Source: an uncultured Nitrososphaerota archaeon
GTDB taxonomy: Archaea; Thermoproteota; Nitrososphaeria; Nitrososphaerales; CADDZS01
NCBI GenBank assembly: GCA_963799845.1
Contig: CAWCYI010000006.1
Coordinates: 736,001 to 800,000 of the forward strand
Reading direction: 5' to 3'
Length of the DNA stretch: 64,000 bases
Part shown: positions 3-38,961 of the stretch, piece after piece
Numbering within the stretch: position 1 is the first letter of the stretch
Layout of the letters: every line of letters starts with the position of its first letter
Notes under the pieces: model-generated
Seen by the model: the letters and a program-made list of their open reading frames with translations, nothing else
The model's database searches: none
What the model was told of the DNA's origin: nothing
Position numbers and translations under genes: made by a program

Positions 3-299
3 CACTGCGATCCGATCGATTTTGAAATCCTGGAACCGCTGGACGGTCCCAGCATCTACAAGGAGTTTCTAGAGGAGCGGGGCGAGGGTCTGCACCACGT
101 TTCAGTGGTCAGTCCTCGGGAAGACGTCCATGCAGCCTTGAATGATTTCAAAAAACAGGGAATCGAAGTCGCGATGAGCGGCCGTCTGGGCGATAATATC
201 GAGTTCTATTACATGGATACAGATCCGATGTTGAAGATGGTCGCAGAGACCGTGAGCGGTCATGCGATCTCGATGAAGCCGAGCTGGACATATCCCTAG
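3..299 (+). CDS. VOC/glyoxalase family protein (methylmalonyl-CoA epimerase-like), 5' partial
   Basis: Frame open from the window edge: FEILEPLDGPSIYKEFLEERGEGLHHVS, a typical Glyoxalase_4 motif; stop at 297-299. Confidence 0.8.
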   Translation, partial: HCDPIDFEILEPLDGPSIYKEFLEERGEGLHHVSVVSPREDVHAALNDFKKQGIEVAMSGRLGDNIEFYYMDTDPMLKMVAETVSGHAISMKPSWTYP

Positions 300-1866
300 G
301 TCCCGGCCGCGCGCCATAATGGATTCAACAATCCAGAATCCGCGATCTTCAGGTTTGCCCGATAAATATCAAGCCACTTTTCATATAGGACGGAGTATTG
401 CTCGTGAATCTTCATTCTGGGCTTGAAGGTCTTCTCGATTCTTACCAGTTCAGCCGCGCCGTCTTGCAAGCTGTCGTAGAATCCGGCACCAACTCCCGCA
501 CATATGGCAGCTCCCAGCGCCGTTGATTCCTTGATCACTGGAATATTGACTTGCACTCCCAGAGTGTCTGAGAGGATCTGGGCCAGAGGAAGCTTTTCGA
601 TCCGCCCCCGGCAAAGGTCAATTCGTGAGGTTTTGATCGGGTTATCGACTCTATTATTTTCAGATGCCCTAACGAAACGTAGCCTGCGGCTTCCTCTATC
701 GCTCGGATGCATTCTTTTTTACCTGATAACTTTGGGTTCGTAATATCAAATTGCAAAAACGAGGGAGACGCGTGAACCCAGTATTTTGAGTTCATTAGGT
801 TTGAGAAGATTCCTAATACACCACTGCAACCTGGAGGGACCGAGCTTGCTTCCTTTTCCATCAGTTCGTACGCATCGACGCCGAGCCTTCTTGCCTCTTC
901 TTTTTCCTCCTGGCAAAACGCATCCCTGAACCAGCGCATGGTCAGGCCGCAGTAAAATCCGATACCCTCGAGCATCCACTGGCCTTCGATGGTGCTGCAC
1001 AGGGTTCTCAATCTTATCTTTGGATCGATGAGCGGTTTATCGAGCAAAATTGTATGTTGCCAGAAACTTCCGCCAAGGATCGTGACCTTTCCCGGCCTCG
1101 AAACCCCGATCCCGGCGAGGCCCAGCTGAGTATCGGCGCCTCCTACGACCACCGGAGTCCCTTCGGGGAGAGACGTTTCCCTCGATGCTTTTTTCGTAAC
1201 TCCCCCGACGACGGTTCCCGACGAAATGACGCGGGGAAATATCTCCCTTTCCAGTCCGACCATCTCCAGTATTTCCCGAGACCACGACCTTGTCTTCAAG
1301 TCGAACATTCCGGAGCTGGAACCGATGGAGGGTTCAGTGACAAATTCGTCGGATAATCTGTAAAGAATCCAGTCAGCAAGCATCCCCATGTGCGCGATCT
1401 TACCGAACACTTCGGGCTCGTGTTTCTTAATCCAGAGAAACCTTGGCACTGAGGTAATGGAGACCCAGTCTCCCGAGATGAAGTATATCTTCTTGGCATC
1501 TCCACTCTTTACAAGTTCAGTGGCTTCATCCTTCGCCCTCGAATCTACGTTAGGGCAGGCCCAGATCTCCCGTCCCCGCTCGTCATACAAGACCATCCCC
1601 TCCCTCATGCTTGTCGCACTGACAGCATCAATTTTGGAGCCGTTGGTTCCCGCTTTTTCGATCGCGTCCCGAATGCAGACGCAAATTAGCCCCCAGTTTG
1701 TCCTTGTGTCGAAGACCTGCGATGTCGGGTAACCCTTGAGCGGTTTATGCGACCACTCCTGCTGGGAGAAGGAGACCTGATTACCAGATTTGTCGAAAAT
1801 GACGGCCCGGCAGCTGCCGGTTCCAGCGTCCACCGCCATTATGAAATGGTCTGATTCTCTCTTCAA
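296..1866 (-). CDS. lsrK: Autoinducer-2 (DPD) kinase-like FGGY kinase, frameshift at ~580
   Basis: DAGTGS, SMREG..LY, IWACPNVDSRA, GLTMRWFRDAFC.EEK, FAGGGSK, KESTALG and C-terminal LWRAAG match enterobacterial LsrK as recalled; ORFs 535-1866 and 296-712 join by adding one C in the run at 580-582. Confidence 0.8.
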
Positions 1867-1892
1867 AGAAGGGACTCTTTTCTAAAAGGATG

Positions 1893-2939
1893 TTAATTCT
1901 TCAGAACTTCAGGATTTATCACGGTCTCAAGCGCGAGACCGGAAAGGTAACGTTGTAGCTGTTTTGCAACGATCTGAGCGCCCTTCGTCGTTGTTTCGAA
2001 TGTTGCTCCCGCAATGTGGGGAGTTACAATCACGTTATCCAGAGTGATCAACGGATTAACGGGGCGATTGGGATTGTACCTCAATACATCCATCGCTGCT
2101 CCCGCAATCTTATTCTGTTTCAGCGCTTCGAACAGGGCAGTTTCGTCAACCATGCTCGGTCTCGCCGTATTGATGAAAAAAGAGTCAGGCTTCATTGACC
2201 CGAACTCCGTTTCTCCAAAGAGGTATTCGTTTTCTTTCGATTCCCTGGCGTGAAGAGAAACAAAATCGGATGCCGATATTAGATTCTGAAAGTCCGTCAC
2301 CTTCACTCCAGGGGCCTCGATCTTTGATTTGTCAACGTAAGGGTCATAGACAAGAATTTCCATTCCAAACCCCAGGGCTCTCGTGCACACCTTTGAGCCT
2401 ACCCTGCCGTAGCCTACCAAGCCAAGAACTTTTCCGCCAAGCTCATGTCCGAAGAACTGGTTTCCCTCATAGTTATCTGCGCCAACGATTTTTGTTGCTT
2501 TTACATGATCCAGAGCTCGCACAATGTTCCTCGATAGCATGATCATGAACGCTATCGCGAGATCTGCAACAGCGTCCGCATTCTTGCCCGGTGCAGTTAC
2601 TACGGGGATCTTCGTTTCAGTTGCGGCCTGAACATCAATATTAACGGGCCCTCCGCGAGCGCAACAGATTAGTTTCAGATTGGGAGAAGCATCCAGTACC
2701 TGATCAGTTACGGGAGCTCCATGAACCACGAGGCAATCAACCGAATCTATCTCATTGATTAATTGACTTGGAGAGCCCAGGTACTCCCTAATCCTTCTTT
2801 CCGAATCGGAAATTGGATTCAGCTTCTGGTCTTCATTCATTTCGATATAGCGTACATCGCAGGTTCCTGAAATATCGGAGAATGCCTTTCTGAAATCCTC
2901 AACCGAGACAAAAGAGTCGCCTGCGACAAGAATCTTCAT
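1893..2939 (-). CDS. D-isomer-specific 2-hydroxyacid dehydrogenase (SerA-like)
   Basis: GLVGYGRVG Rossmann motif, FINTARP, GAAMDV, TPHIAGAT. Confidence 0.9.
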   Translation of the reverse strand: MKILVAGDSFVSVEDFRKAFSDISGTCDVRYIEMNEDQKLNPISDSERRIREYLGSPSQLINEIDSVDCLVVHGAPVTDQVLDASPNLKLICCARGGPVNIDVQAATETKIPVVTAPGKNADAVADLAIAFMIMLSRNIVRALDHVKATKIVGADNYEGNQFFGHELGGKVLGLVGYGRVGSKVCTRALGFGMEILVYDPYVDKSKIEAPGVKVTDFQNLISASDFVSLHARESKENEYLFGETEFGSMKPDSFFINTARPSMVDETALFEALKQNKIAGAAMDVLRYNPNRPVNPLITLDNVIVTPHIAGATFETTTKGAQIVAKQLQRYLSGLALETVINPEVLKN

Positions 2940-3706
2940 CGCATGCCCCTTCCGCCGCTGACAGTGAGGATCTCGCCAGTGACAAAATCAGATTCATCCG
3001 AAGCGAGGAAGACGCAAGCACTTCCGATCTCGTCCGGTCTTCCCAGCCTCTTGAGCAATGCTTCAGCTACCGCGTTTCTCCTAGCCTCTTCAGTCATGGA
3101 AGCCACCATGTCCGTCTCGATAGTACCAGGGGAAACCGCATTCACTCGAATGAAAGGTGCCAATCTGACGGCAAGAGCTCTAGTTACTCCAATCACCCCG
3201 GCTTTTGACGCCACATAGTTAGGAATCGTCAGAGCTGACGGCTGCGCGAGACCGGATATCGATGCTATGTTGATTATAGATCCTTTCTTCTGCTCGATCA
3301 TTATCGGAGCTACTTCCTTGCAACAGAAAAAAGTCCCCTTCAAGTTGACATCAATGGTTCTATCAAAATCTTCCTCGGTGGACGAGAGAAAATCCTTTCG
3401 TATGATGATGCCCGCATTGTTGACCAGCACATCTATTCTTCCCATCTTCTCTTTTGCAACAGAAACCATCGTCCTAATCTCGTCAATTTTCGAGACATTC
3501 CCCTTGGCAAGAAAAGCTCTTCCGGGGCCCTGATCGTTTAGAGACTCCACCAATTCGGTCGCTTGAGTCTCCGAGCTGTTATAATTCACCAAGACATCGG
3601 CTCCTTCCATGACAAACGATCTCGCAATGGCAGCTCCAATTCCTTTGCTAGCGCCTGTGACAATTGTTTTCTTGCCTTCCAGTCTGCTGTTTCCTGCGTG
3701 GCTCAT
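2936..3706 (-). CDS. SDR family oxidoreductase (FabG-like)
   Basis: TGASKGIG, NNAG, YVASK. Confidence 0.92.
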   Translation of the reverse strand: MSHAGNSRLEGKKTIVTGASKGIGAAIARSFVMEGADVLVNYNSSETQATELVESLNDQGPGRAFLAKGNVSKIDEIRTMVSVAKEKMGRIDVLVNNAGIIIRKDFLSSTEEDFDRTIDVNLKGTFFCCKEVAPIMIEQKKGSIINIASISGLAQPSALTIPNYVASKAGVIGVTRALAVRLAPFIRVNAVSPGTIETDMVASMTEEARRNAVAEALLKRLGRPDEIGSACVFLASDESDFVTGEILTVSGGRGMR

Positions 3707-3815
3707 GTTACTGGTTCACCGGGCAGAGGTTATTCAGACTTTTGACGCGAGTGTCGCACACTTGAATCCTCATACTTTCTTATAAGAAAGGGAGGCCAAC
3801 AGTCGATTCGATTTA

Positions 3816-4169
3816 ATGTCAAGACAATTATCCTCAAGCGAAAGAGAGAAACTTCTTGAAGATATTTCGAACAAGTGGGAGGAAACTCTCCACTTCCTGG
3901 GAGAAGGCGGTGATGTCACTTTCGGTTTCCTTGCTCTGGCAAAACACGATCTGCTTGTTTCAGGAAATACGGTCAATTGTCAATATTGCAAACGGCATAT
4001 TGAGGAAGAAGCCAAGCTAATTGATATGACCATGGATCTCGCAAAGTTGGGAAACACGTACCCACACGCTCACGGTTTGGGCGAAAAGATGCGTATTGCT
4101 TTCTCGGCAATGAAAATCACAATATTCATTACACTTGGCGGACTGAGACGCGCCGGATTTCTCCCATAA
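3816..4169 (+). CDS. Hypothetical protein with CxxC..H and HxH motifs
   Basis: 117-aa ORF downstream of a TTATAA box at ~3780, stop 2 nt before the E2 ORF. Confidence 0.65.
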   Translation: MSRQLSSSEREKLLEDISNKWEETLHFLGEGGDVTFGFLALAKHDLLVSGNTVNCQYCKRHIEEEAKLIDMTMDLAKLGNTYPHAHGLGEKMRIAFSAMKITIFITLGGLRRAGFLP

Positions 4170-4171
4170 AA

Positions 4172-5356
4172 GTGTGTGAACGTTTGGCGGAAGCGGTGAC
4201 GGTCCCTAAACTTGGTTTGACGATGAAGAAAGCCACCGTCGTCAAGTGGCACAAGCGAGAAGGGGAAGGAGTAAAAAAAGATGAAACAATCGCCGAGATA
4301 GAAACAGACAAAGTAACGTGCCAAATTCAATCCCCGCAAGACGGGATCCTTCTGAAAATCTTAGGACAAAAGGGCGCAAACGTCCCTGTAGGGGGAATTC
4401 TCGCTTACGTGGGACAGCAAGGGGAACAGGTTCCGGAGAATGTCGTGGCTCCGCCAAGTCCAACGGATAAACCAGCGCCTATTGCGGGAAAGCAATCAAG
4501 TGCTCAACCACTGATTCAAAGCCCCGCTTCTGATAAGAAGAGAGTGTCTCCGCGAGCTAAAAGACTGGTCGAAGAAAAGGGAATAGATCTCTCAAGAATT
4601 GTCGGCAGCGGACCTGAAGGAATGATCCTTGAGAGCGACATACTGGCTTACATCGAGACCAATCTCTCCCGAACGAGCAATGGACTGAAAGTTAAACAAG
4701 TGATTCCGTTCACTGCGATCCGCAAGGCCATCGCTGAAAATATGACTGCCAGCTTGCAGGGGATGGCGCAAGTAACACTGATGGCGGAAGCTGAGGTATC
4801 TCGCTTTCAGAAAATTCTAGCGGGAGCCGAGTCGTCCGATGATCATCCGACATACACAGATCTGCTGGTCCAATTAGTATCAAAGACTCTGGAAAATCAC
4901 CCCATGTTAAATTCGACGATCGAGGAAGACCAGATCAAGATTATCGAAGAGATCAATATTGGTGTGGGAGTCGCCGCAGAATCCGGTCTGGTCGTCCCAG
5001 TAATCAAAAACGCAAACAAAAAAGGTCTCAGCGAAATTTCAACCGCCCTTAAGGGACTGGGCGAGAAAGCCCGTCAGCAAAAATTGATGCTGGAAGACGT
5101 TTCTGGGGGAACGTTCACAGTTACAAATCTTGGGATGTATGGAATCACTGCATTTACCCCGATAATTAATCCTCCTCAAACTTCAATCTTGGGCGTTGGC
5201 GAAGTCACCCTCAAGCCAGTCGTGGACTCGGGGAAAATAGAAGTTAGACCGATGATGATGCTCAGCCTGACTTTTGATCATCGGGCGATGGACGGACACA
5301 TCGCAGCTAATTTTCTCAGGGACCTGAGAAAAGCCATCGAAAGTGGCTCTGGTTAG
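4172..5356 (+). CDS. Dihydrolipoamide acyltransferase E2 (AcoC/PdhC-like); probable start TTG 4184
   Basis: Lipoyl domain EIETDKV, peripheral-subunit-binding SPRAKRL..GSGPEG, catalytic FDHRAMDG. Confidence 0.93.
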   Translation: MCERLAEAVTVPKLGLTMKKATVVKWHKREGEGVKKDETIAEIETDKVTCQIQSPQDGILLKILGQKGANVPVGGILAYVGQQGEQVPENVVAPPSPTDKPAPIAGKQSSAQPLIQSPASDKKRVSPRAKRLVEEKGIDLSRIVGSGPEGMILESDILAYIETNLSRTSNGLKVKQVIPFTAIRKAIAENMTASLQGMAQVTLMAEAEVSRFQKILAGAESSDDHPTYTDLLVQLVSKTLENHPMLNSTIEEDQIKIIEEINIGVGVAAESGLVVPVIKNANKKGLSEISTALKGLGEKARQQKLMLEDVSGGTFTVTNLGMYGITAFTPIINPPQTSILGVGEVTLKPVVDSGKIEVRPMMMLSLTFDHRAMDGHIAANFLRDLRKAIESGSG

Positions 5357-5369
5357 GCGCAGCGAAATC

Positions 5370-6359
5370 TTACTTTCCGAACGAGGCGTGAACTGCCTTG
5401 ACGATTCTTTCGGTGCTCGGAAGGAAGACTTCTTCCAGAACCGGACTGAACGGAGCCGGAGAGTTTAGGGCAGTGACCATCTTGATCGGAGAATCCAGAT
5501 AGTGGAAACCCCGATCCGCAACCAGGGCAGATACGTCGGTAGCAAAGCCGCATCGCGGGTAATCTTCGTCGACAACTACGAGTCTACCTGTTTTCTTGAC
5601 CGAATTCAAAATCGCTTCCTCGTCCAGAGGTACAATTGTCCTCGGATCAAGAACTTCTGCACTGATTCCTTCTTTCGCTAGAAGCGAAGCCGCTTCCAGA
5701 CTTTGATAAACTGTCCGAGCTAATCCGACGATCGTAACATCCTTGCCTTCCCGCTTGATCTCTGCTTTTCCGAAAGGTATGGTGTAGCTTTCGGTCGGAA
5801 CCCTTCCTTCAATGCTGTGCAGGAACTTGTGCTCGAAGAACATCACGGGATCGTCCTGCCTCAGCGCTTGAGTGAGAAGACCTTTGGCATCGTAGGGAGT
5901 CGACGGTACCACGCACTTTATTCCAGGAATGTGCGCGAAGATGGAATAGAGGCACTGAGAATGCTGCGCGGCTGCCGACAATCCTCCGCCGATCATGGTG
6001 ATTATCGTAAGCGGGATTTTCGCCTTGCCGCCGAACATGTATTTCATTTTCGCGGCTTGATTGAATATCTGGTCAGCGGTAACGCCGAAGAAATCAACGA
6101 ACATCAAATCAACTACGGGCCTCAGTCCTGTCGCAGCAGCTCCTACAGCGACCCCGACAAATCCGGCTTCAGAGATCGGGGTATCGATGATCCTGCTATC
6201 GCCGAACTTTTCCTTGAAACCCTTGAATCTGCCGAAGACGCCTCCCCAGATTCGAACGTCCTCCCCCATGACGATGATGCGATCATTCCTCTCCATTTCT
6301 TGCTGGAGCGCGTTAGTTATCGCTTGCAGAAATGTGAATTTTACTTCGCTGACTTGCAT
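5370..6359 (-). CDS. acoB: TPP-dependent acetoin/2-oxoacid dehydrogenase E1 beta
   Basis: DTPISEAGFVG, MFVDF, NQAAKMKYMFGG, AAAQHSQ, FFEHK. Confidence 0.85.
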   Translation of the reverse strand: MQVSEVKFTFLQAITNALQQEMERNDRIIVMGEDVRIWGGVFGRFKGFKEKFGDSRIIDTPISEAGFVGVAVGAAATGLRPVVDLMFVDFFGVTADQIFNQAAKMKYMFGGKAKIPLTIITMIGGGLSAAAQHSQCLYSIFAHIPGIKCVVPSTPYDAKGLLTQALRQDDPVMFFEHKFLHSIEGRVPTESYTIPFGKAEIKREGKDVTIVGLARTVYQSLEAASLLAKEGISAEVLDPRTIVPLDEEAILNSVKKTGRLVVVDEDYPRCGFATDVSALVADRGFHYLDSPIKMVTALNSPAPFSPVLEEVFLPSTERIVKAVHASFGK

Positions 6360-6376
6360 GAAACATATTTCTCCTT

Positions 6377-7357
6377 TTAGTTGCTAGAGTAGATGTCGTC
6401 CATGACCTCATCGGGCGAGGGCCATTCGCTTTTCTCGGCGAAATCGACCGCTTCATCGACTTCTCTCAGAATGGAATCGTCGATCTCGCGATATTTGGCT
6501 GCGGTCAAGTAACCTTGTTCGATCAATGAGTTCTTGAACCTCGCTATAGGATCAACTCTCTTCCAGTCGTCAACCTCCTGTGTCGTTCGGTATTTCTGAT
6601 CATCGCCTTCGAAGTGTCCCATGTACCGGTAAGTGTCACAGACAAGGTACGAAGGACCTTCTCCCCGTCTTGCTCTTGCGACCATTCCTGACGCGGTATC
6701 GAAAACTGTCATCACGTCCATACCGTCGATTCTGGACGCCGGAATGCTGTAGGACGATGCCCTGACTGTAGGGTCTTCCACACTCGTAGCATACTTGATC
6801 GAGGTTGATTCCGCGTATTGGTTATTTTCTAAAACGAAAATCACGGGTAGTTTCCATATCGAAGCGAGGTTCAGAGATTCGTGCAATACTCCTTGATTCA
6901 GCGCTCCGTCGCTGAAGAAAGCAACAGCTACCTGGTCTGTTCCTCGATATTTGGCGGAGAGGGCTGCACCCACAGCGTGAGGAACGCCCCCCGCAACAAT
7001 TCCATTGGCTCCGAGCATTCCCAAAGTCAGATCTGAAATGTGCATCGATCCACCCTTGCCCTTGCAGGTGCCGGTCCTTTTTCCAAAAAGTTCAGCCATC
7101 ATGGACTTGATTTCAATACCCTTAGCTATGCAATGACCGTGTCCGCGGTGAGTACTAGTCACATAATCGTCATCTCGTAAGTTGGATAAAACTCCCACCG
7201 CGACCGCTTCTTCACCGATGTAAAGGTGGACGAATCCCTTGACCCTCGAAGCTGCAAATTCCTTCTTTACTCTCTCTTCAAATCTCCTGATTGTAAGCAT
7301 CCTTTGGAGCATGTCCAAGAGCTTTTCATTGCTTTGAACCGTGATTGAACTGGTCAT
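6377..7357 (-). CDS. acoA: TPP-dependent acetoin/2-oxoacid dehydrogenase E1 alpha
   Basis: GFVHLYIGEEA, STHRGHGH, GKGGSMH, SDGA..N TPP motif, YRYMGHFEGD (AcoA-type). Confidence 0.85.
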   Translation of the reverse strand: MTSSITVQSNEKLLDMLQRMLTIRRFEERVKKEFAASRVKGFVHLYIGEEAVAVGVLSNLRDDDYVTSTHRGHGHCIAKGIEIKSMMAELFGKRTGTCKGKGGSMHISDLTLGMLGANGIVAGGVPHAVGAALSAKYRGTDQVAVAFFSDGALNQGVLHESLNLASIWKLPVIFVLENNQYAESTSIKYATSVEDPTVRASSYSIPASRIDGMDVMTVFDTASGMVARARRGEGPSYLVCDTYRYMGHFEGDDQKYRTTQEVDDWKRVDPIARFKNSLIEQGYLTAAKYREIDDSILREVDEAVDFAEKSEWPSPDEVMDDIYSSN

Positions 7358-7542
7358 ACGACCGTAAGACTGGACGACTCACTATTGAATTTATCTCGAT
7401 CATTCGAAGAGTAATTTGCGAGCAATGTCAAAATCGGTGTCTTCAGATAACTATCAGACTCGAAATACGCGGCCGTGGTCTAATCTCAAAAAACTGGGCC
7501 GCTATTCATCTGAAAGAAGATTCCTTCACTGGACAATCGAGG

Positions 7543-8295
7543 TTACTGATGCATTCCTCTGCCCCCTGTAACCAGCATGAGCTCGCCGGTGATGAAATCC
7601 GACATATCCGAGGCCAGAAACACTGCCGCGTTAGCAACATCTTCCACTTTTCCCAGCCTCTTCAAGGGTGTTTCATCAATCAGAGCCTTGTTCGCTTCCG
7701 AGTCTCTGAATGATGTCATATCAGTAACGATCGCGCCCGGACAGATCGCATTCACATTGACGTATGGACCAAGACGGAGTGCGAGAGCCTTTGTCAATCC
7801 ATTTACGCCAGCTTTGGAAGCAACGTACTCGGCGAAGCGCATCGCAGATGGATGGTACATGCCAGAGTTTGACGATATGTTGACAATCTTGCCTTTCTTT
7901 TGGTTCAGCATGATCGGAGCAACTTCTTTCGAACAGAGGTAGGTCCCTTTCAGATTAACGTCGAGCGTTTCATTCCACATTTCTTCAGTGTGTTCAAAAA
8001 GGTCAACTGGATAATGAATGCCGGCGTTGTTCACCAAAACGTCAATGCGCCCCCAAGCATTCATCGTATCTTGCACAATCCGCTTTACTTCTTCCAATCT
8101 TGACACGTTTGCTTTCACAAGAATTCCCGTCCCGCCATCCACTTCGATATCCTTCAAGAGAGAAGCAGCCTCTTGGGATGAGTTGTTGTAGTTAATTGCG
8201 ACTTTTGCACCCTCAGAGCTAAATTTTTTCGCAATCGCTCTCCCAATCCCCCGGCTGGCACCGGTGACGATGGCTGTTCTATTTTCCAATAACAT
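7543..8295 (-). CDS. SDR family oxidoreductase, paralog of 2936-3706
   Basis: TGASRGIG, NNAG, YVASKAG; shares C-terminal GGRGM with the paralog. Confidence 0.92.
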   Translation of the reverse strand: MLLENRTAIVTGASRGIGRAIAKKFSSEGAKVAINYNNSSQEAASLLKDIEVDGGTGILVKANVSRLEEVKRIVQDTMNAWGRIDVLVNNAGIHYPVDLFEHTEEMWNETLDVNLKGTYLCSKEVAPIMLNQKKGKIVNISSNSGMYHPSAMRFAEYVASKAGVNGLTKALALRLGPYVNVNAICPGAIVTDMTSFRDSEANKALIDETPLKRLGKVEDVANAAVFLASDMSDFITGELMLVTGGRGMHQ

Positions 8296-8365
8296 GTTCT
8301 GCTAATTATTGAGGAAGGTTGATGAAAGTTTTGATGAGTATGGGTTTGAGGTCACTTTCGGTTTC

Positions 8366-9214
8366 TTATCTTAATCCGAGCTCCCTCATCATCTTATCAG
8401 TCGCTGAATAAGCCTCGAAAACCCAGCTCCTGACTTGAGTCGGATCATTTGGCCACTGGAGCTCGATGCTCACCGGGCAAGCGACACCAATCTCTTTCAA
8501 GACTATGAGGTATTTCTTCAACGGGACGACTCCCCTTCCGGGAGGTAAATCTCCGTGTACTTTTCCATCGCAGTCCGAGAAGTGGATGTTGATGATTTTG
8601 TTTCGGAGTCTCTCCAAAGTCTCAGGATCGTCACCCATCAAGAACAGATGCGATACATCTGCGTTCGCTTTTACCGCCGGATGATTTGCGTCTTTGATGA
8701 ACGTCGCCATGTGATCTACGGAGTCGAGCAGGTAAAACATGTACGGCACATACTCTAGGGCGATCTCTATCCCAAGTGATTTTGAATAATCCGCAATTTC
8801 CCTGACTCCTTCGACTGCCCAGTTCCATTGCAATTCCGGTTTGAATTCCCTCTTCTCGTAAGAGTAATTTCCTAACACGAGGACCATTGTGGGGGAGTCG
8901 AAATCAAATCCGATCTCCAACTCTTTTTTCACGTAATCAATTGTTGCTTTCCTCATTTCAGGAACGAAATCAGTCAACCCGTTGGCAGCGACGATGAATG
9001 AAGAGCAGGGCATCTCGTTTTCCTTGAAGGCCTTGCGCTGGGCTTTTCTGACTTCAACCGAGGAATTCAATGGAAAAATGTCGTACGAATCAAATCCCAT
9101 TTTCTTGGCAACTTTGATTCCTTCGATGGGGCCCACCGGAGAACTCCACCAACAATTCTCAATCAGACCCAGTTTCAATTGATGAACTTCCGAAAACGGT
9201 GTGCAATCTTTCAT
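8366..9214 (-). CDS. Sugar phosphate isomerase/epimerase (ketose 3-epimerase-like, AP endonuclease 2 fold)
   Basis: IALE, DVSH, IHFSD..HGDLPPGRG, SIEL metal ligands. Confidence 0.85.
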   Translation of the reverse strand: MKDCTPFSEVHQLKLGLIENCWWSSPVGPIEGIKVAKKMGFDSYDIFPLNSSVEVRKAQRKAFKENEMPCSSFIVAANGLTDFVPEMRKATIDYVKKELEIGFDFDSPTMVLVLGNYSYEKREFKPELQWNWAVEGVREIADYSKSLGIEIALEYVPYMFYLLDSVDHMATFIKDANHPAVKANADVSHLFLMGDDPETLERLRNKIINIHFSDCDGKVHGDLPPGRGVVPLKKYLIVLKEIGVACPVSIELQWPNDPTQVRSWVFEAYSATDKMMRELGLR

Positions 9215-9493: not shown

Positions 9494-11089
9494 ATGGCGG
9501 GTACAAAATCAGTTTTCGTGCGCGATGCCACGGGGTTGGTTCGAGCTTTTCGTTGGTATGATGCTCTGATTCTAAGTCTTGCAGTTACCGGTCCAACATA
9601 TTTTGGGATCGCCTCGCAGATCGGTTACGTCTCACCTAACGTTCCCGGCGCGGATTTCACGACTTCCGCCGCGATCGGTTTGTTGTTCATGATTCCTTTG
9701 GGGCTAGTCTACTATTTGTTTGCCGTCAGTATGCCTAGGTCCGGAGGAGATTACGTCTGGATAGGCCGATCCATTCATCCGATTTTGGGATTCGTGGGCG
9801 GCTGGGCCATGTTCATTTCATTCATCTTTCTTCTGGCGGGAGTTGGAGGTCCGACCTGGGCTGGAGTTGTAGTTCCAGTTTTTTACGTAACCATGGGATA
9901 TGTCTGGCACAGCCCAGGACTGGTCACTTACGCTACTACGTTCACCAGGAATACAGTCTTTGAGTATGGATTACTCGTGATAATCTTGGGTGCTTTAATT
10001 ACAGCCTTTGGTCCTAAAGTGTACAGCAGAATCATGATCTTCTTAGCGGCGATCATCCTTCTTGGCACTTTCGTTTTCATCGGTGTAGCGGCGACCACCT
10101 CTCCTACGACTTTCGCCAATGCTTTCAACACTTTCACTTCTACGAATGCGCTGAACGCGACATACAGTAGTATCATTAGTAATGCAGGAACCGCTGGCTG
10201 GGCATATCAGCCAATAACCACCGCGCTCACTTTGGCGAGCGTTCCTTTCGGGGTCCTCTTGTTTAACGGATTCAACTATTCAGTGTACGTGTCTGGGGAA
10301 ATGAAAGATGTCCGAAGGAGTATGCTGTGGGGAGTTTTGCTTGCATTACTCATATGCGGAATCTTGGATATCATAGGTCTCTACTTTGGAGTAAAGATGA
10401 TTGGCTACGAGTTCAATCAAGCAGCCTTCTATCTGTTCGGGCATGGATCTTCCGCCTGGCCGTTTCCAGGGATTTCTCCGTGGATCGCGCTATTCACCCC
10501 GATGGTGATCAACAATGCATACCTGTCCACATTCGTGCAACTCGGTTGGTTACTTTTCTTCATATGGTGGGCGGCCGCTCTTATCCTCGCGATTTCGCGT
10601 TACGTCTTTGCATTCTCTTTCGACAGGGTCCTGCCCACGGCTTTTGCGGACGTAAACCAGCGCTTCCACTTCCCGCTCAAAGCGACGGCCTTGACTTTGG
10701 GGATCGGGATACTCTTCCTGATCGACTTCACTTACCTCCAATCCTACCTGGTGGCTACACTCAACACTACTGCAATTTGGGCCGTGGTCTGGGTTGTCGT
10801 AGGCCTGTCGGCGATAGTCTTCGCGGTCAAAAAGAAGGAGATGGCGAAGGCTCTTCCCGGTGGTCCAGTGCTACTGATGGTCTTTGGTCTGCTGTCAATG
10901 CTCGCTATGGGCGCTACTTTCTATTACGCAGCGACAAACTCTGCAATCGGACCGTTCACCACTTCTGCGCAGGGCCTTCTCGGAGTAGTATTTGCGTCGG
11001 GCCTGGTAATCTACATCATCAGTTACTACTACCACAAAGCCCACAACATCAACCTCGACTTGGTATTGAAGGAAATACCTCCAGAGTAA
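9494..11089 (+). CDS. APC family amino acid/polyamine permease
   Basis: FVRDATGLVR, MPRSGGDYVW, FAFSFDRVLP, about 12 hydrophobic segments, C-terminal EIPPE. Confidence 0.9.
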   Translation: MAGTKSVFVRDATGLVRAFRWYDALILSLAVTGPTYFGIASQIGYVSPNVPGADFTTSAAIGLLFMIPLGLVYYLFAVSMPRSGGDYVWIGRSIHPILGFVGGWAMFISFIFLLAGVGGPTWAGVVVPVFYVTMGYVWHSPGLVTYATTFTRNTVFEYGLLVIILGALITAFGPKVYSRIMIFLAAIILLGTFVFIGVAATTSPTTFANAFNTFTSTNALNATYSSIISNAGTAGWAYQPITTALTLASVPFGVLLFNGFNYSVYVSGEMKDVRRSMLWGVLLALLICGILDIIGLYFGVKMIGYEFNQAAFYLFGHGSSAWPFPGISPWIALFTPMVINNAYLSTFVQLGWLLFFIWWAAALILAISRYVFAFSFDRVLPTAFADVNQRFHFPLKATALTLGIGILFLIDFTYLQSYLVATLNTTAIWAVVWVVVGLSAIVFAVKKKEMAKALPGGPVLLMVFGLLSMLAMGATFYYAATNSAIGPFTTSAQGLLGVVFASGLVIYIISYYYHKAHNINLDLVLKEIPPE

Positions 11090-11234: not shown

Positions 11235-12323
11235 TTGAAAATCGAAGAGCTTCCGACTCCATGCGTACTGATAGACCTTGATGCGCTGGAAAGAAATATC
11301 GAGAAGATGGCAGCGTTTACAAAATCGAAGAATTGCGGGGTGAGGCCACATGCAAAGTCCCACAAGAGCCCGTTCATTGCAAAGAAGCAGATGGATGCGG
11401 GAGCTGTAGGTGTCTGCTGTCAGACTCTGATCGAAGCCGAGGCAATGATTCTGAACGGGATCGACCACGTCCTGTTGACGCATAATCTAGCCTCTACTGG
11501 GATGCTCGAGAGATTTCTAAGCCTAAGAAAGAATGGTGACATAAAGATTCTTGTTGATGGACCAGAAAATACAGAAATGCTTGCAAAGGCCGCTAGACAT
11601 CGCGGACTCACTGTCGATGTTTTGGTCGAGGTCAATGTTGGAAACAACAAAGCCGGACAGGAACCCGGCGAACCCGCCGCGAAATTTGCTTCGTGGGTTT
11701 CGAAAGTAGAGGGCGTCAGGTTCAAGGGTCTCCAGTGCTACGAAGGGAATCTTCAACTCACGATTCCGAGTTTTGAAACGAGAAAGGAGCAAGCCGGGCC
11801 GGTTCTTCAAAAGATCACGAAAACCTTAGGTGCTCTAAAAAACTTGGGACTCGTGCCCGAGATCGTAACCGGTGGAGGAACTGGAACTTACAACATTACA
11901 GCCGGTTATCCAGGAGTGACGGATATTCAACCAGGATCCTACATTATGATGGACAGGCGGTACTCGGAGATCGACACGGCAGGTTCCGATTTTGAGCAGG
12001 CGATGACAGTCCTTTCAACCGTTGTAAGTACTCCAAACGATACGAGAGCGGTCATAGACTTGGGGTGGAAGGCAGTTGGTATCGAGTATGAAGCCCTGGG
12101 ATGGGGAGGAATGCCCAAGCCCCTGATTCATGGTGTTACCTATTCGACCGGTGGCGACGAGCACGGAGTGTTGAAAAGCGAGATCGCTTCGAAGCGGCCC
12201 AACGTTGGTGACAAGGTTCGATTCATTCCTGCCCACTGCGATACCACATTGAACCTACACGGAGTTTTTTACGGAATTCGAGGGGACAGCGTTGAAGTGG
12301 TCTGTCCAGTTGCCCGTCGCTGA
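11235..12323 (+). CDS. DSD1/D-threonine aldolase family PLP-dependent enzyme
   Basis: RPHAKSHK PLP lysine, GGGTGT, QPGSYIMMD, DEHG, PAHCDTT. Confidence 0.88.
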   Translation: MKIEELPTPCVLIDLDALERNIEKMAAFTKSKNCGVRPHAKSHKSPFIAKKQMDAGAVGVCCQTLIEAEAMILNGIDHVLLTHNLASTGMLERFLSLRKNGDIKILVDGPENTEMLAKAARHRGLTVDVLVEVNVGNNKAGQEPGEPAAKFASWVSKVEGVRFKGLQCYEGNLQLTIPSFETRKEQAGPVLQKITKTLGALKNLGLVPEIVTGGGTGTYNITAGYPGVTDIQPGSYIMMDRRYSEIDTAGSDFEQAMTVLSTVVSTPNDTRAVIDLGWKAVGIEYEALGWGGMPKPLIHGVTYSTGGDEHGVLKSEIASKRPNVGDKVRFIPAHCDTTLNLHGVFYGIRGDSVEVVCPVARR

Positions 12324-12332
12324 TTTTCGGGA

Positions 12333-13184
12333 GTGAATGAGATGAAATTCGGATTAGCTGTTACCGGACGGGCAAACCCGAAGATTCTGGAAAAGATGGC
12401 GATCAAAGCTGACGGCGTCGGTTACGACTCATTCCTCGTGACGGATCACTTTATGCTGCCGGATGCAAATAACCACATAGACGTCTGGTCCTTCCTCCCG
12501 TACCTAGCAGCAAAGACAGAGAACGTTCGGCTTGGGACTTGCGTGACCCCACTCCCATTTAGGCGGCCGGGTATTCTAGCGAAGATGATCTCCACCACGG
12601 ACAATCTTTCCGGCGGCAGGGTGATCCTGGGTGCCGGATTCGGGTGGTTCAAACCCGAATTCGATGGATTCTCTCAGTGGCTTGAAACGAAGGAGAGAAT
12701 TTCGTACAGCGAGGAAGCTATCCAACTTATGTTAAGGCTCTGGACAGAAAAGAATCCCGTGGATTATGATGGAAAATTCGTGCATTCGAAGGGAGCGGTA
12801 ATCGAACCGAAGCCAATCCAGAAACCGCATCCACAGATCTGGTTCGGAGGTCATAGGTCTCAGAGTTTGCGAATGGCAGGACGGTATGGTCAGGGCTGGA
12901 TGCCGATAGGGCCGAGATGGTTCAGCGACAGCTATCCCAGACCCGCCGAATACGCGGAAATGAAGGCAAAGATTGTGTCCAGATTAAAGAACAGAGGTGT
13001 CTCGGAGAAGAAATTTGTTTTTACGACTTTGATCAACAATGCAGACTTGAAGACAGTGAAAGCCGATGTGGAACAATTCATCGACGCCGGCATGAATTAT
13101 TTTACTCTGGGCGAAAAGGCGCAGTCCGAGGACAGCATCAAGAGTATTGCAAAAGTTGCAAAAGATATAGGCGGATCGCTCTAA
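12333..13184 (+). CDS. LLM-class flavin/F420-dependent oxidoreductase
   Basis: DHF, LAAKTENVRLGTCV, DNLSGGRVILGAGFGW, PKPIQKPHP. Confidence 0.9.
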   Translation: MNEMKFGLAVTGRANPKILEKMAIKADGVGYDSFLVTDHFMLPDANNHIDVWSFLPYLAAKTENVRLGTCVTPLPFRRPGILAKMISTTDNLSGGRVILGAGFGWFKPEFDGFSQWLETKERISYSEEAIQLMLRLWTEKNPVDYDGKFVHSKGAVIEPKPIQKPHPQIWFGGHRSQSLRMAGRYGQGWMPIGPRWFSDSYPRPAEYAEMKAKIVSRLKNRGVSEKKFVFTTLINNADLKTVKADVEQFIDAGMNYFTLGEKAQSEDSIKSIAKVAKDIGGSL

Positions 13185-13188
13185 ACCG

Positions 13189-14086
13189 GTGAGCGGTTCT
13201 CAGTTGAAAAAATCGGGCTGGAAGATTTCATTTATCCCTTACTTCATGAAGGCGAAGCTCCAGTGGAGTGCTCCGAAAAACGACGAGGCTATTCGGGTCC
13301 TTTCTGAAGAGGGATTTGACGGTGTCGAGTGGATGCTGGGACACCACTTCAACAGTACCCGAAGAGCTCCAGCGTCTCGCAGAGAAAACTAGGAAGAATG
13401 GGCTTGAAATTTCAAACCTAATGTGCTGGCAGGATCTGGTAACTAACGTTAGCAAGACGCGAAATTTGCGTATCAAAGTTCTCGAAGAATACATTGCAGC
13501 AGCCGGATCGCTGTCAATCCCGATCGTGAACGTATTTACTGGGCCGATCACGTGGGCTCCGAATTATCAGAAGATCGGGCGAGATATTTCCGAAGGCAAA
13601 GCCTGGTCTGTCGTAGTTGATTCGTTTTCGAAAATAGTAGATGCAGCTGAGAAAAACAACGTTATCCTCACCGTCGAGGCAGTCTTCGGAATGCTGGTCC
13701 ACGACTATTACACGATGCGAGAGTTTCTCGGCCACTTTGACTCCAATCATCTCGGGGTCAACCTCGATCCGTCGCACTTGGCACTGTATGGAAACGATCC
13801 GGCGTGGGCAGTATCTCGGCTGGGACACAGAATTAGACATGTGCACGTTAAGGATGCCGTCGGGAAAGCCGGTACTCTGGGAGAAGATTTTGTTTTTCCT
13901 TTCTTGGGGGAAGGATCGGTCGATTGGAAAGATTTTCTCAAGGCTCTAGCGCAGGTAAACTACAGCGGTTATCTTTCTCTAGAGTTCGAGAATGATGTTT
14001 ACCTGAACAACGTCTGCGATGGCGACTGGGCGATGGCGGCTAGGGAATCAAAATCCCGTCTATTGAAATTCCTCGGAGAATTGTAA
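13189..14086 (+). CDS. Sugar phosphate isomerase/epimerase, frameshift at ~13357
   Basis: GFDGVE in ORF 13189-13392 continues as PEELQRLAEK...NLDPSHL, HVHVKD, LGEGSVDW, LSLEFE in ORF 13268-14086. Confidence 0.85.
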
Positions 14087-14199: not shown

Positions 14200-15189
14200 A
14201 TGGAATACGTTCGATTCGGCAACACCGGTCTCAAAATCTCCCGTTTGTGTCTCGGCTGCATGAGCTTCGGCAACGGGACAGACTACATGGTAGAGGAGGA
14301 TGAGGCAAAGAAAGTCATCGCGAGAGCATGGGACCTCGGGATAAATTTCTTTGATACTGCGAATGTGTATTCCGATGGAAGGTCTGAGGAGATAGTCGGC
14401 GACTCGGTGAAGGATTATGGCCGTGAGAACCTGGTGATCGCAACCAAGGTCTACAACGACATGGGGAGCGGCCCCAATCAGCGAGGTCTGTCGAGAAAGC
14501 ACGTGATGTGGCAGATGGGAGAGTCTTTAGCCCGGTTGAAGATGGACTACGTTGATCTATACCAGACTCATCGCTGGGATTACGATACCCCGATTGAGGA
14601 AACCCTGTCGGTACTTTCAGATCTGGTACACGGCGGAAGCGTCAGGTACATCGGCGCGTCAAGCATGTGGGCGTGGCAGTTTTCAAAAGCCCTCTACACA
14701 AGCGAACTCAGGGGTTTTGAAAAATTTTCCAGCATGCAAAATCTATACAATCTGCTCTATCGCGAAGAAGAGAGGGAAATGATACCACTCTGCGTGTCCG
14801 AAAATGTTGCTCTAATTCCGTGGAGTCCGACGGCAGGCGGCTTGTTGACAGGAAAGTACTTTTCTGATGGAAAGATCGCAACCTCCTCAAACGATTACAG
14901 CCGGCTGGCACCGGGTTCTTTTGGCTACAAGAGGTACGTTGGTAGAGCATCAAGTGACGAAATAATGAAGCGGTTGATCGAAATCGCGAAGAACGAGGGG
15001 GCAAAGCCAACGCAAGTAGCTATATCGTGGCTGCTCACCAAAAAGGCAGTTACTTCTCCCATAATTGGGACTTCGAAGGTCGAACATCTGGAAGAATTCG
15101 TAGGATCGCTGAGTGTCAACCTTTCAGCGGAAGATTGCCGGTACCTGGAAGAGCCGTACCAGCCGCAGACAGTCTCGGGATTCGTCTAG
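14200..15189 (+). CDS. Aldo/keto reductase (YajO-like)
   Basis: CLGCMSFG, FFDTANVYSDGRSE, DYVDLYQTHRWD, IPWSP. Confidence 0.93.
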   Translation: MEYVRFGNTGLKISRLCLGCMSFGNGTDYMVEEDEAKKVIARAWDLGINFFDTANVYSDGRSEEIVGDSVKDYGRENLVIATKVYNDMGSGPNQRGLSRKHVMWQMGESLARLKMDYVDLYQTHRWDYDTPIEETLSVLSDLVHGGSVRYIGASSMWAWQFSKALYTSELRGFEKFSSMQNLYNLLYREEEREMIPLCVSENVALIPWSPTAGGLLTGKYFSDGKIATSSNDYSRLAPGSFGYKRYVGRASSDEIMKRLIEIAKNEGAKPTQVAISWLLTKKAVTSPIIGTSKVEHLEEFVGSLSVNLSAEDCRYLEEPYQPQTVSGFV

Positions 15190-25407: not shown

Positions 25408-25734
25408 CTGTTATTCTCGCTGTGGATGCGGAATACAAGCTTACGTAATGCTTGGAAAGCAAGTAATCTTTGTAGACCCGTGGGGTACCACACAATTCTG
25501 CCACAGCTGCCTCCAATGGGTTCCAAAGAATTTAGGAGAAAGGGAACATGACTGCCCCAAATGCGGGATCAAACTATCAAGAGACCTCAATTCTGCAAAA
25601 TTGATTAGAAGGCTTGGCATCCAGAAAAGAAGCCCGCCCTCGGACGGGGAGTCGTCATCCGCTGAGCTTTTGCCTCTACCATCTCTGAGGAGAATGGCAA
25701 GCATTGGTGAGGAAGCGGGAGGCCTACGAATGAA
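25408..25734 (+). pseudogene. tnpB: IS200/IS605 TnpB C-terminal remnant (Zn ribbon plus RuvC-III)
   Basis: EYKL, then a frameshift, then GKQVIFVDPWGTTQFCHSC...HDCPKCG..SRDLNSA; the right end resumes at 27369-27390. Confidence 0.85.
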
Positions 25735-27390: not shown

Positions 27391-27886
27391 ATGAAAACCA
27401 GAACTGATAGATGCTGCAAAACTAGATCCACGGGCAGCATAAGTAATCCAACTGTTGATTCGGGATAATTGACTGTCTAGTTTTTGGACGACTTGCTTGC
27501 TCTAAATTTGTTCTTGAATGCATTTTATTAGGTCAAAAACAGCAGAGCGGACCATATTCTAAGATTGTAGCTCGATTCCAATATAGCGTTCCTTTTTTTG
27601 GCACTTCTTTGATGCCATCTACAAAGAGAGGATTGAAGTTGGGTCGTGGGGAAAAAGGCTGGATGCCTTCCATACAATCATAGTGAGTCGCCGTGGCTGG
27701 ACGCAAGCTCGAGGAAAGTTAGCTTGTCGGCCTAAGCGAATAATCTATTCAAGAAAGACTCATTTGGTTGTTTTTTCGCTCAAGGTAAGAAGAAATCCAC
27801 ATTGGCCTAGTTTACAATCTGACATAATTGAACGACTTGTTTTCATTCAAGGATGCAGTTACTCCTACTTGATAGAAAGGTATAGA

Positions 27887-28663
27887 ATGAAAATGAATAG
27901 AACTCTTTTGATTCCGATTTCCGTAACTGTTGTCATAGCACTTATGCTAGGTGGGATGACTATATTGAGCTCAGCGTCAACAACCGCTGCAAATCTGATG
28001 CCGGTGAATCTTGGAACAGCCGGTAATTTCGTAATTTTAGCGAAATCAGGAATCTCAACTACTGGAACTACCAAAATTACAGGTAACATTGGTGTGAGCC
28101 CAATTGCTGCCACCGCCATAACTGGGTTCGCCTTGAAATTGGATTCGTCGGGTACGTTTGCGACTTCATCGCTGGTAGTTGGAAAAGTATACGCGGCCAA
28201 CTATGCGCCTCCTACTCCGGCTATGATGACGACTGCCATTAATAATATGCAGACAGCTTACACCAATGCCGCTGGACGAGTTAATCCAAAGTCTACTAAT
28301 TTATACGCGGGAGATATTAGCGGGAGAACTCTCACTCCTGGCCTCTACAAATGGACAACCGGGGTTATAATAAACACTGGAGTTACTCTCGCCTGCAGTG
28401 GCAGTGCAAACGCTGTCTTCATCTTCCAGATAGCAGGAACTCTAACCGTGGGCAGCGGTGCTATCGTTACTCTTAGTGGTGGTTGCAAAGCTACCAACAT
28501 TTTCTGGCAGGTCGCAATGAAAACAATTCTTGGAACAACCTCGAACTTTAAGGGGATAATCTTGGATGAAACTGCGATTGTCGTGCAGACCGGGGCAACT
28601 CTGACAGGTAGAGCACTAGCGCAGACCGCAGTTACATTAGACGCCAACACTGTTGGGCCATAG
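27887..28663 (+). CDS. Secreted ice-binding protein (DUF3494/IBP-1 beta-solenoid)
   Basis: Signal peptide, then PVNLGTAGNFVILAKSGIS, GNIGVSP, AYTNAAGR, TLTPGLYKW, VFIFQI, NIFWQV, GRALAQTAVTLD. Confidence 0.93.
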   Translation: MKMNRTLLIPISVTVVIALMLGGMTILSSASTTAANLMPVNLGTAGNFVILAKSGISTTGTTKITGNIGVSPIAATAITGFALKLDSSGTFATSSLVVGKVYAANYAPPTPAMMTTAINNMQTAYTNAAGRVNPKSTNLYAGDISGRTLTPGLYKWTTGVIINTGVTLACSGSANAVFIFQIAGTLTVGSGAIVTLSGGCKATNIFWQVAMKTILGTTSNFKGIILDETAIVVQTGATLTGRALAQTAVTLDANTVGP

Positions 28664-38960: not shown

Positions 38961-38961
38961 G

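Follow-up and report, generated by a model that had tools for sequence, protein, structure and literature searches.

An LsrK-family kinase cluster with an adjoining E1/E2 dehydrogenase complex in a soil Nitrososphaerales archaeon

The gene cluster at the left end of the window

The window analysed here comprises 64,000 nt (positions 736,001 to 800,000 of contig CAWCYI010000006.1, GenBank assembly GCA_963799845.1). In its left ~15 kb, a Nitrososphaerales archaeon from soil carries a catabolic gene cluster that contains a kinase of the LsrK family and, close to it, the genes of a thiamine pyrophosphate (TPP)-dependent E1 alpha/E1 beta-E2 dehydrogenase complex. In enterobacteria, LsrK and LsrF are the known machinery for removal of the interspecies signal autoinducer-2 (AI-2). 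An initial annotation, whose genes form the left part of the cluster, had read the locus as a candidate archaeal route for the consumption of AI-2 (4,5-dihydroxy-2,3-pentanedione, DPD) in which LsrK is coupled to an acetoin-dehydrogenase-type complex instead of LsrF and LsrG.

The open reading frames (ORFs) of the window were listed and 60 of them were scanned against Pfam and NCBIfam (beyond nt 16000 only ORFs of at least 120 aa). The cluster contains the following genes, given with coordinates, strand, product and family match:

3..299, +, VOC (vicinal oxygen chelate)/glyoxalase-superfamily protein, C-terminal 98 residues (Pfam Glyoxalase_4)
296..1866, -, LsrK-family FGGY kinase, frameshifted; N part 535-1866, C part 296-712 in the other frame (NF008187)
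1893..2939, -, D-isomer 2-hydroxyacid dehydrogenase of the phosphoglycerate dehydrogenase/glyoxylate reductase type (Pfam 2-Hacid_dh_C, 2-Hacid_dh)
2936..3706, -, short-chain dehydrogenase/reductase (SDR) oxidoreductase SDR1 (Pfam adh_short)
3816..4169, +, orf117, 117 aa, family unassigned (no Pfam or NCBIfam match)
4172..5356, +, E2 dihydrolipoamide acyltransferase (Pfam Biotin_lipoyl, E3_binding, 2-oxoacid_dh)
5370..6359, -, E1 beta, TPP-dependent dehydrogenase (Pfam Transket_pyr, Transketolase_C)
6377..7357, -, E1 alpha of the pyruvate dehydrogenase (PDH) 'y'/acetoin-dehydrogenase type (Pfam E1_dh)
7543..8295, -, SDR2 oxidoreductase, preceding E1 alpha in the same orientation (Pfam adh_short)
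8366..9214, -, xylose-isomerase-like TIM barrel 1, sugar isomerase/epimerase-like (Pfam AP_endonuc_2)
9494..11089, +, APC (amino acid-polyamine-organocation)-family permease (Pfam AA_permease_2)
11235..12323, +, pyridoxal phosphate (PLP) enzyme of the D-threonine aldolase/D-3-hydroxyaspartate aldolase family (Pfam Ala_racemase_N, D-ser_dehydrat)
12333..13184, +, luciferase-like (F420/FMN-type) oxidoreductase, LLM (Pfam Bac_luciferase; under the cut-off of the F420 LLM subfamilies)
13268..14086, +, xylose-isomerase-like TIM barrel 2 (Pfam AP_endonuc_2)
14200..15189, +, aldo/keto reductase (Pfam Aldo_ket_red)

The E1 alpha and beta subunits, the E2, the two paralogous SDRs, the 2-hydroxyacid dehydrogenase and the VOC protein that had been placed around the kinase are thus confirmed. 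To judge from their orientation and spacing, the genes may be organised as two divergent pairs of transcription units, four in all, namely SDR1-dehydrogenase-kinase, orf117-E2, TIM barrel 1-SDR2-E1 alpha-E1 beta and permease-aldolase-LLM-TIM barrel 2. Since the end of SDR1 overlaps the start of the dehydrogenase gene by 4 nt, the genes of the first unit, in which the dehydrogenase lies directly upstream of the kinase, probably form one operon.

Of 511 related loci found in species-representative genomes, 80 were used for mapping of the window proteins and the E. coli Lsr proteins. These 80 loci include 62 bacterial ones (Chloroflexota, Actinomycetota, Dormiibacterota and one Acidobacteriota), 10 from Nitrososphaerota and 8 from Bathyarchaeia.

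The kinase, LsrF and the conserved core

The N part of the kinase carries the FGGY domains PF00370 (158.6 bits) and PF02782 (28.4 bits), and its residues 6-430 alone score 543.4 bits on the NCBIfam LsrK equivalog NF008187 (cut-off 528), the next best NCBIfam model being xylulokinase with 158 bits. The C part scores 100.8 bits on NF008187, and P0003, an intact relative 91% identical to the window kinase, reaches 654.3 bits. Identity to E. coli LsrK is 45% on one side of nt 583 and 48% on the other, and the structure of that enzyme (5ya0) is the best PDB match of the window kinase (405 bits, the next being 83 bits). The closest homologues of the window kinase come from Nitrososphaerales/Thaumarchaeota assemblies. 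A FastTree phylogeny of 127 rows was built from the N part of the window kinase, E. coli LsrK, the kinases of 17 of the 80 loci, two second FGGY kinases of Bathyarchaeia and 106 of 150 representatives (the other 44 fell outside 470-560 aa; the set held no named non-LsrK references). In this tree E. coli LsrK, the window kinase and all 17 locus kinases fall into one clade of 40 rows with 100% local support, within which the window kinase belongs to a 20-row 'soil' subclade (95%) and E. coli LsrK to a separate subclade of 6 rows. As placed by this phylogeny, the window kinase belongs to the LsrK clade, and the grouping proposed initially is upheld.

The kinase had been described as carrying LsrK-specific motifs along its whole length. 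This stands for the family, as judged by NF008187, 5ya0 and the tree, but not for a single open frame, which is broken at about nt 583. The N part covers positions 3-428 of NF008187 and the C part, in another frame, positions 426-520; an alignment of E. coli LsrK to the window changes frame at nt 583. The DNA at the break reads TGG CCC AGA, where 18 aligned relatives have an invariant W-P-Q, so that the C run (GGG on the + strand) is one base short. An assembly error appears more likely than decay. A programmed -1 frameshift at this site was judged unlikely, as it is not a slippery heptamer and the relatives are in frame.

The core of the cluster recurs in all 80 loci, which come from other species, and the grouping of the genes is therefore more than chance. 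The genes found near the kinase (LsrF being sought within 10 kb in Bathyarchaeia) are distributed as follows:

LsrF: 50/62 bacterial (52 if a cut and a fragmented copy are counted), 9/10 Nitrososphaerota, 0/8 Bathyarchaeia
2-Hydroxyacid dehydrogenase: 56/62 bacterial, 8/10 Nitrososphaerota, 0/8 Bathyarchaeia
VOC protein: 50/62 bacterial, 9/10 Nitrososphaerota, 6/8 Bathyarchaeia
D-Threonine-aldolase-like enzyme: 42/62 bacterial, 7/10 Nitrososphaerota, 1/8 Bathyarchaeia
Class II aldolase: 13/62 bacterial, 0/10 Nitrososphaerota, 5/8 Bathyarchaeia
E1 alpha, E1 beta and E2 together: 0/62 bacterial (E1 beta only in 1), 0/10 Nitrososphaerota (E1 beta and E2 in 1), 5/8 Bathyarchaeia

The conserved core thus consists of the LsrK-family kinase, the VOC protein, the 2-hydroxyacid dehydrogenase and an LsrF-type thiolase, and is common to Nitrososphaerota and to many Chloroflexota, Actinomycetota and Dormiibacterota from soil. 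For the bacterial LsrF homologues the identity to the E. coli enzyme is 56-64%, and a cyclase-like hydrolase is present in 27 of the bacterial loci. In L025 (recorded as Candidatus Nitrosopolaris sp.) the surroundings of the kinase are bacterial-like, with a VOC protein 53% identical to that of the window and a SorC/LsrR-like regulator, while the APC permease and LsrF are both lacking; this contig may be mis-binned or recently transferred.

Within the 64 kb, tblastn with the E. coli proteins (E <= 1e-8) found none of lsrF, lsrR, lsrA, lsrC, lsrD and lsrB, and a search with the archaeal LsrF was likewise negative at E <= 1e-6. LsrG, LsrB and LsrR had no phmmer match at E <= 1 in the window, and LsrG had none at this threshold among all ORFs of at least 60 aa of the window and the 80 loci. 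No LuxS was matched by Pfam among the 60 scanned ORFs, those under 120 aa beyond nt 16000 lying outside the scan. The initial statement that the window lacks lsrF, lsrG, lsrR, lsrACDB and luxS is borne out by these searches. The archaeal loci likewise gave no tblastn or phmmer match to the LsrACDB importer or to LsrR, and SorC/LsrR-like regulators (28-34% identical) were found in about 20 bacterial loci only.

For LsrF, the absence from the window is very probably an edge artefact. When the LsrF of L002, a Nitrososphaerota locus, was used as query, P0276 was found, a protein of 272 aa and 91% identity, which lies on a single contig of 1,751,265 bp; the contig of the window kinase (P0002) is likewise exactly 1,751,265 bp. 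On NF006081, the LsrF equivalog (cut-off 297), P0276 reaches 395.5 bits, compared with 177.6 bits on ADH (2-amino-3,7-dideoxy-D-threo-hept-6-ulosonate) synthase (cut-off 299). Its identity to E. coli LsrF is 52%, and D57, K203 and D251, which we take to be the catalytic residues of LsrF, are conserved in the alignment. The possibility that P0276 is an archaeal ADH synthase of the aromatic amino-acid pathway was rejected, the ADH synthase models giving 178-197 bits, under their cut-offs, against 395 for LsrF.

An LsrF homologue was found in all Nitrososphaerota loci except L001, which stops inside the kinase gene. In eight of these nine loci (L002-L008 and L062) the order is dehydrogenase, kinase, VOC on the opposite strand and LsrF, the last two being separated by 100-600 nt. 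The VOC fragment of the window aligns to residues 69-166 of the 166-aa homologue of L002 (88% identity), so that the ~68 residues before them are encoded beyond the left edge. Because the window edge cuts the very gene after which LsrF follows in the relatives, LsrF is expected just outside, and it most likely lies on the contig of the window, about 1-2 kb to the left. Another relative is represented by contigs of 237,840 bp, the size recorded for the kinase P0008, the LsrF P0281 and the E1 alpha P0393 (90% identical to that of the window); to judge from these entries, a relative with the window-type E1 alpha also keeps LsrF. The proposal that the complex acts 'instead of LsrFG' consequently fails for LsrF, given the score of P0276 on NF006081 and the kinase-VOC-LsrF synteny. 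An lsrF elsewhere in the genome, named by the initial annotation as evidence against its own proposal, is what the equal-sized contig of P0276 indicates.

For LsrG, the VOC protein is a candidate substitute. It is the most constant partner of the kinase, and VOC-fold enzymes catalyse proton-transfer isomerisations; for these two reasons it may replace the LsrG isomerase.

SDR1 and SDR2 are 53% identical to each other, and orthologues of SDR2 occur in Nitrososphaerota and Bathyarchaeia loci (61-67% identity) and in four Chloroflexota loci (57-59%). The 2-hydroxyacid dehydrogenase stays under the cut-off of every NCBIfam model, its best PDB matches being phosphoglycerate dehydrogenase and glyoxylate reductase (161-164 bits). 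TIM barrel 1 had been called a ketose epimerase, a label that proves too specific: the best epimerase models give 36-47 bits against cut-offs of at least 300, and the best PDB match 44 bits. Among the 80 loci its orthologue (80-81% identity) was found only in L002, where it adjoins a split transketolase. The D-threonine-aldolase-like enzyme matches D-threonine aldolase (PDB 7dib) with 261 bits. Orthologues of the APC permease (54-95% identity) are present in six Nitrososphaerota and two Bathyarchaeia loci, and this permease is the probable importer of the cluster. Orthologues of the luciferase-like oxidoreductase (58-64%) and of TIM barrel 2 (57-65%) occur in Nitrososphaerota loci and in L078. 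The aldo/keto reductase has no orthologue at the equivalent place in the related archaeal loci and its membership of the cluster is uncertain. The orf117 gene, which stops 2 nt before the E2 start, has a 94% identical copy at the equivalent place in L001 and no match in the other 79 loci.

Scans of the window for tRNA and Rfam families detected nothing, and a promoter/terminator scan gave 10 promoter-like sites against 13.8 expected, its bacterial model being uninformative for an archaeon. Further along the window, the genes of a Na+/H+ exchanger (34243-35479, -) and an aldehyde dehydrogenase (49976-51410, +) are each split into overlapping ORFs. Together with the kinase this makes three frameshifts in about 60 genes, which suggests assembly indel errors or a pseudogene-rich genome. 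The window also encodes an ice-binding-like protein (27683-28663, +; PF11999, 251.5 bits), mobile elements at 25448-27284 (+), where a DUF772/DDE transposase comes after a short ORF bearing a Cas12f1-like/TnpB TNB domain, and an IS66-family transposase (44777-46162, +). Two molybdopterin (xanthine/CO-dehydrogenase family) large subunits with FAD and 2Fe-2S subunits (38448-39849, -; 47538-49922, +; 55118-57532, -) have an amidohydrolase, aminotransferases and another APC permease close by, and this region may serve purine or N-heterocycle catabolism.

The E1/E2 complex and the fate of the kinase product

The E2 has lipoyl, E3-binding and catalytic domains and carries the DK (lipoyl-lysine) and DHRAMDG motifs. 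E1 beta scores 356 bits on the subfamily model NF006667 (cut-off 321), and E1 alpha scores 377.3 bits on TIGR03182 (PDH E1 alpha, 'y' branch), under the cut-off of 393.85; acetoin-type enzymes presumably fall just under this cut-off. Among the five best homologues of E1 alpha (88-91% identical), three are named acetoin:DCPIP (2,6-dichlorophenolindophenol) oxidoreductase alpha by the Joint Genome Institute (JGI) and two are unnamed. The next homologues are more than 100 proteins at 56-63% identity, of which the named ones are from Chloroflexota and are called pyruvate dehydrogenase E1 alpha. In the PDB, the window E1 alpha is closest to human PDH E1 alpha (221 bits), and plasmid-borne homologues of ~50% identity carry the generic NCBI E1 name. 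JGI names are thus split between acetoin:DCPIP oxidoreductase and pyruvate dehydrogenase, and no dedicated AcoA model was matched. Of the initial 'AcoA/AcoB-type' label, the heteromeric E1 alpha/beta and the lipoyl-bearing E2 are retained; with the TIGR03182 score and the mixed names, the complex may be of the acetoin or of the pyruvate type.

The distribution of this complex is patchy. In Nitrososphaerota it was found only in the window and in L001, the locus of the 91% relative, which has the same arrangement. The lsrK-acoAB linkage, whose conservation the initial annotation had set as a check, breaks down among the closest relatives (1 of 10 loci). In L002, whose kinase is 77% identical, the E1/E2 slot beside the same TIM barrel is filled by a two-subunit transketolase on the kinase strand. 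This split transketolase (1347-3175, +) has subunits of 274 and 335 aa and lies between the TIM barrel and a 75-aa remnant of SDR1. From this comparison, the E1 alpha/beta-E2 genes are a lineage-specific insertion, and in the window genome the complex is very probably an addition beside LsrF and not its replacement.

The link between kinase and E1/E2 recurs further away, on one strand in five of the eight Bathyarchaeia loci and once in Anaerolineaceae. The Bathyarchaeia order is VOC-class II aldolase-kinase-E1 alpha-E1 beta-E2, followed by two Zn-dependent alcohol dehydrogenases. The Anaerolineaceae locus (L058), which has no LsrF match, shows an E1 beta fragment (50% identical) at the contig end beside the cluster. 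In L056 (4266-8768, +), also from Bathyarchaeia, the kinase precedes genes for DhaK/DhaL, for a class II member of the fructose-bisphosphate aldolase family and for another FGGY kinase. The Bathyarchaeia E1 alpha proteins are 41-42% identical to that of the window, compared with 60% for the kinases, 76-83% for the VOC proteins and 56-63% for the more than 100 E1 alpha homologues described above. The E1 sets of the window and of Bathyarchaeia are therefore not closest kin, which points to independent recruitment of E1 in the two lineages. Because the distributions of LsrF with the dehydrogenase and of aldolase II with E1/E2 are complementary, they suggest two alternative exits for the kinase product, the window lineage having both.

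Family memberships, gene order, the conservation pattern and the LsrF on an identically sized contig are the observations on which the pathway preferred here is built. The explanation that we hold to be somewhat better than even is an Lsr-like catabolic pathway with LsrF on the same contig and E1/E2 as a second exit. The APC permease would import the compound, and the D-threonine-aldolase-like enzyme, the SDRs, the TIM barrels and the LLM oxidoreductase would trim it to DPD or a close 1-deoxy-ketopentose. The terminal hydroxyl of this DPD-type product would be phosphorylated by the LsrK-family kinase, and the VOC protein, in place of LsrG, would with the 2-hydroxyacid dehydrogenase give 3-hydroxy-2,4-pentanedione 5-phosphate. 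LsrF would cleave the latter with CoA to dihydroxyacetone phosphate (DHAP) and acetyl-CoA, which the orthology of LsrK and LsrF makes the likely end products. E1/E2 would provide a plausible second exit, dependent on TPP and lipoamide, that converts a phospho-1-deoxyketose (acyloin or diketone) into acetyl-CoA and a C3 phosphate. The substrates and the tie of E1/E2 to the kinase product are what we infer from the genes present. Judging from the many conserved genes beyond the core (among them the permease, the D-threonine-aldolase-like enzyme, the hydrolase and the oxidoreductases), a role in nutrient catabolism or salvage is favoured over signal quenching.

Several points weigh against this pathway. 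The place of LsrF next to the window follows from equal-sized contigs and synteny, and 10 of the 62 bacterial loci have no LsrF match nearby; in four of them (L029, L038, L042 and L058) the downstream genes hold no replacement cleaving enzyme, only regulators, a permease and unrelated genes. The roles given to the VOC protein and the 2-hydroxyacid dehydrogenase are guesses, and the best characterised relatives of the former are methylmalonyl-CoA epimerases (21 bits). The kinase carries a 1-nt frameshift at about nt 583-586, intact relatives having 514-524 aa, and the kinase of the Gagatemarchaeum locus L062 is also frameshifted, at another site (~6005). No substrate-bound LsrK structure against which specificity residues could be checked is described in the available part of PMC8028047, which also names no substrate-binding residues. 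No E3 (dihydrolipoamide dehydrogenase/AcoL) was found among the 60 scanned ORFs or beside the Bathyarchaeia E1/E2. Finally, E1/E2 is missing in 9 of the 10 Nitrososphaerota and 61 of the 62 bacterial loci; the core pathway can therefore do without it, and the two may be unconnected.

This last point leads to the strongest alternative, namely that E1/E2 is an ordinary acetoin/2,3-butanediol or pyruvate dehydrogenase complex, brought here by rearrangement and without any tie to the kinase. The SDRs could then be butanediol/acetoin reductases, and both match the meso-2,3-butanediol dehydrogenase model with 196-198 bits, under its cut-off of 270. The scarcity of E1/E2 in related loci, the nearest homologues outside the lineage (the Chloroflexota 'pyruvate dehydrogenase E1 alpha') and the rearrangement of the region with respect to L005 would all fit. 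So would the two Zn-alcohol dehydrogenases after E2 in Bathyarchaeia, since aco operons often carry alcohol dehydrogenases at this place. However, E1 stands beside the kinase cluster in three lineages (the window with L001, Bathyarchaeia and Anaerolineaceae L058), and in L002 the slot is taken by another TPP enzyme, the split transketolase, in one operon with the kinase. Chance can hardly account for three separate recruitments of E1 and, in a fourth lineage, that of a transketolase, although the counts are small and the rows related. Moreover, SDR2 orthologues stay in the cluster where E1/E2 is absent. We therefore regard an ordinary complex as unlikely, although it deserves to be kept in mind.

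Less probable still is that the kinase is a true pseudogene in a cluster decaying in this organism. The frameshift is present not only in the DNA but in the public protein set, where P0002 is found only as a truncated product of 443 aa, and the two other split genes and the transposases in the window could be taken in the same sense. Against this, the lost base falls within a G/C run, both halves keep their identity to E. coli LsrK with no further stops in the aligned parts, and the neighbouring genes are all intact. Three frameshifts in about 60 genes would fit long-read assembly error, and similar breaks occur in related assemblies (the L062 kinase and the LsrF of L060, at 11588-12300, which is in three pieces).

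A more specific proposal gives E1/E2 a definite reaction. Recruited into the Lsr-like pathway in Bathyarchaeia, and as a second branch here, it would cleave phospho-DPD or a reduced acyloin such as 1-deoxypentulose 5-phosphate to acetyl-CoA and a triose or glycerate phosphate, with a VOC-fold enzyme replacing LsrG. We consider this quite doubtful in such detail. The weakest explanation is the original one, in which E1/E2 replaces both LsrF and LsrG and cleaves phospho-DPD or its SDR-reduced acyloin to acetyl-CoA and a C3 phosphate in an LsrF-independent consumption or quenching of AI-2: it could draw on the window without LsrF or LsrG, on the position of E1/E2 between two SDRs and adjoining the kinase operon, on the Bathyarchaeia loci where the kinase is followed by E1 alpha-E1 beta-E2 with no LsrF within 10 kb, and on the cleavage of acyloins and diketones by TPP enzymes, which is established chemistry, but it is very unlikely in view of P0276, of the synteny that puts LsrF just left of the window, of the P0393-type relative that also has LsrF (P0281), and of the missing linkage in 9 of the 10 Nitrososphaerota loci.

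Comparison with known systems

Database names already label these proteins autoinducer-2 kinase and LsrF, and our literature search found no paper on LsrK in archaea or on this cluster. In marine ammonia oxidisers, the 'lsrF' candidates are FbaB-like aldolases and occur without lsrK, according to the available part of PMC11442133. The main text of the Gagatemarchaeaceae genome paper (PMC10640624) contains none of the terms autoinducer, quorum, acetoin, pyruvate dehydrogenase, lsr and 2-oxoacid.

The LsrK/LsrF pair forms the core of a larger conserved cluster, which is present in soil archaea (Nitrososphaerota) and in numerous uncultured Chloroflexota, Actinomycetota and Dormiibacterota from soil. 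This implies that 1-deoxy-dicarbonyl sugars of the DPD type may be widespread in soil as substrates or damage products and that quorum signalling may be just one of their roles, and caution is advised for automatic 'quorum sensing' labels on archaeal genes. If E1/E2 did act on a phosphosugar, it would be the first acetoin-dehydrogenase-type complex to do so and would offer an LsrF-independent archaeal consumption of DPD/AI-2.

The Lsr system of E. coli and Salmonella is matched by the window kinase, which lies within the LsrK clade, exceeds the curated cut-off and shows 45-48% identity, and by the archaeal LsrF P0276, also above its cut-off. Unlike that system, the window and the archaeal loci lack LsrG, LsrB, LsrACD and LsrR, the host is an archaeon, and an APC permease stands in place of the ABC importer. 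The new cluster also has the VOC protein and the 2-hydroxyacid dehydrogenase as constant partners, and an extra D-threonine-aldolase-like enzyme, cyclase-like hydrolase, SDRs, LLM and TIM barrels.

With AcoA/AcoB/AcoC/AcoL and with PDH, the window shares a heteromeric E1 alpha/beta and an E2 with lipoyl, E3-binding and catalytic domains, and the close homologues of its E1 alpha bear the JGI acetoin:DCPIP oxidoreductase name. It differs from the Aco system in that the cluster has no E3, that E2 lies on the opposite strand behind orf117, and that the complex sits in a sugar-type cluster with an LsrK-family kinase. A similar setting is found in the rhizobial E1 alpha/beta-E2-E3 locus of Sinorhizobium americanum plasmid A (287819-302763), whose E1 alpha is ~51% identical to that of the window and where an acetoin-type complex lies in a sugar locus, next to a sugar-binding regulator of the SorC type and an ABC transporter for carbohydrates. 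This locus is bacterial, however, has an E3, and no LsrK-type kinase is annotated in the stretch.

The last comparison is with catabolic clusters that contain a split transketolase. The D-apiose 'transketolase' pathway would be one of these (a literature search linking apulose, transketolase and kinase found no paper). L002 combines a two-subunit transketolase with a TIM-barrel isomerase and a kinase, that is, a kinase step and then a TPP-dependent C-C cleavage, whereas the window has E1/E2 and no transketolase. TPP enzymes, be they E1/E2 or a split transketolase, have thus been recruited repeatedly beside the kinase.

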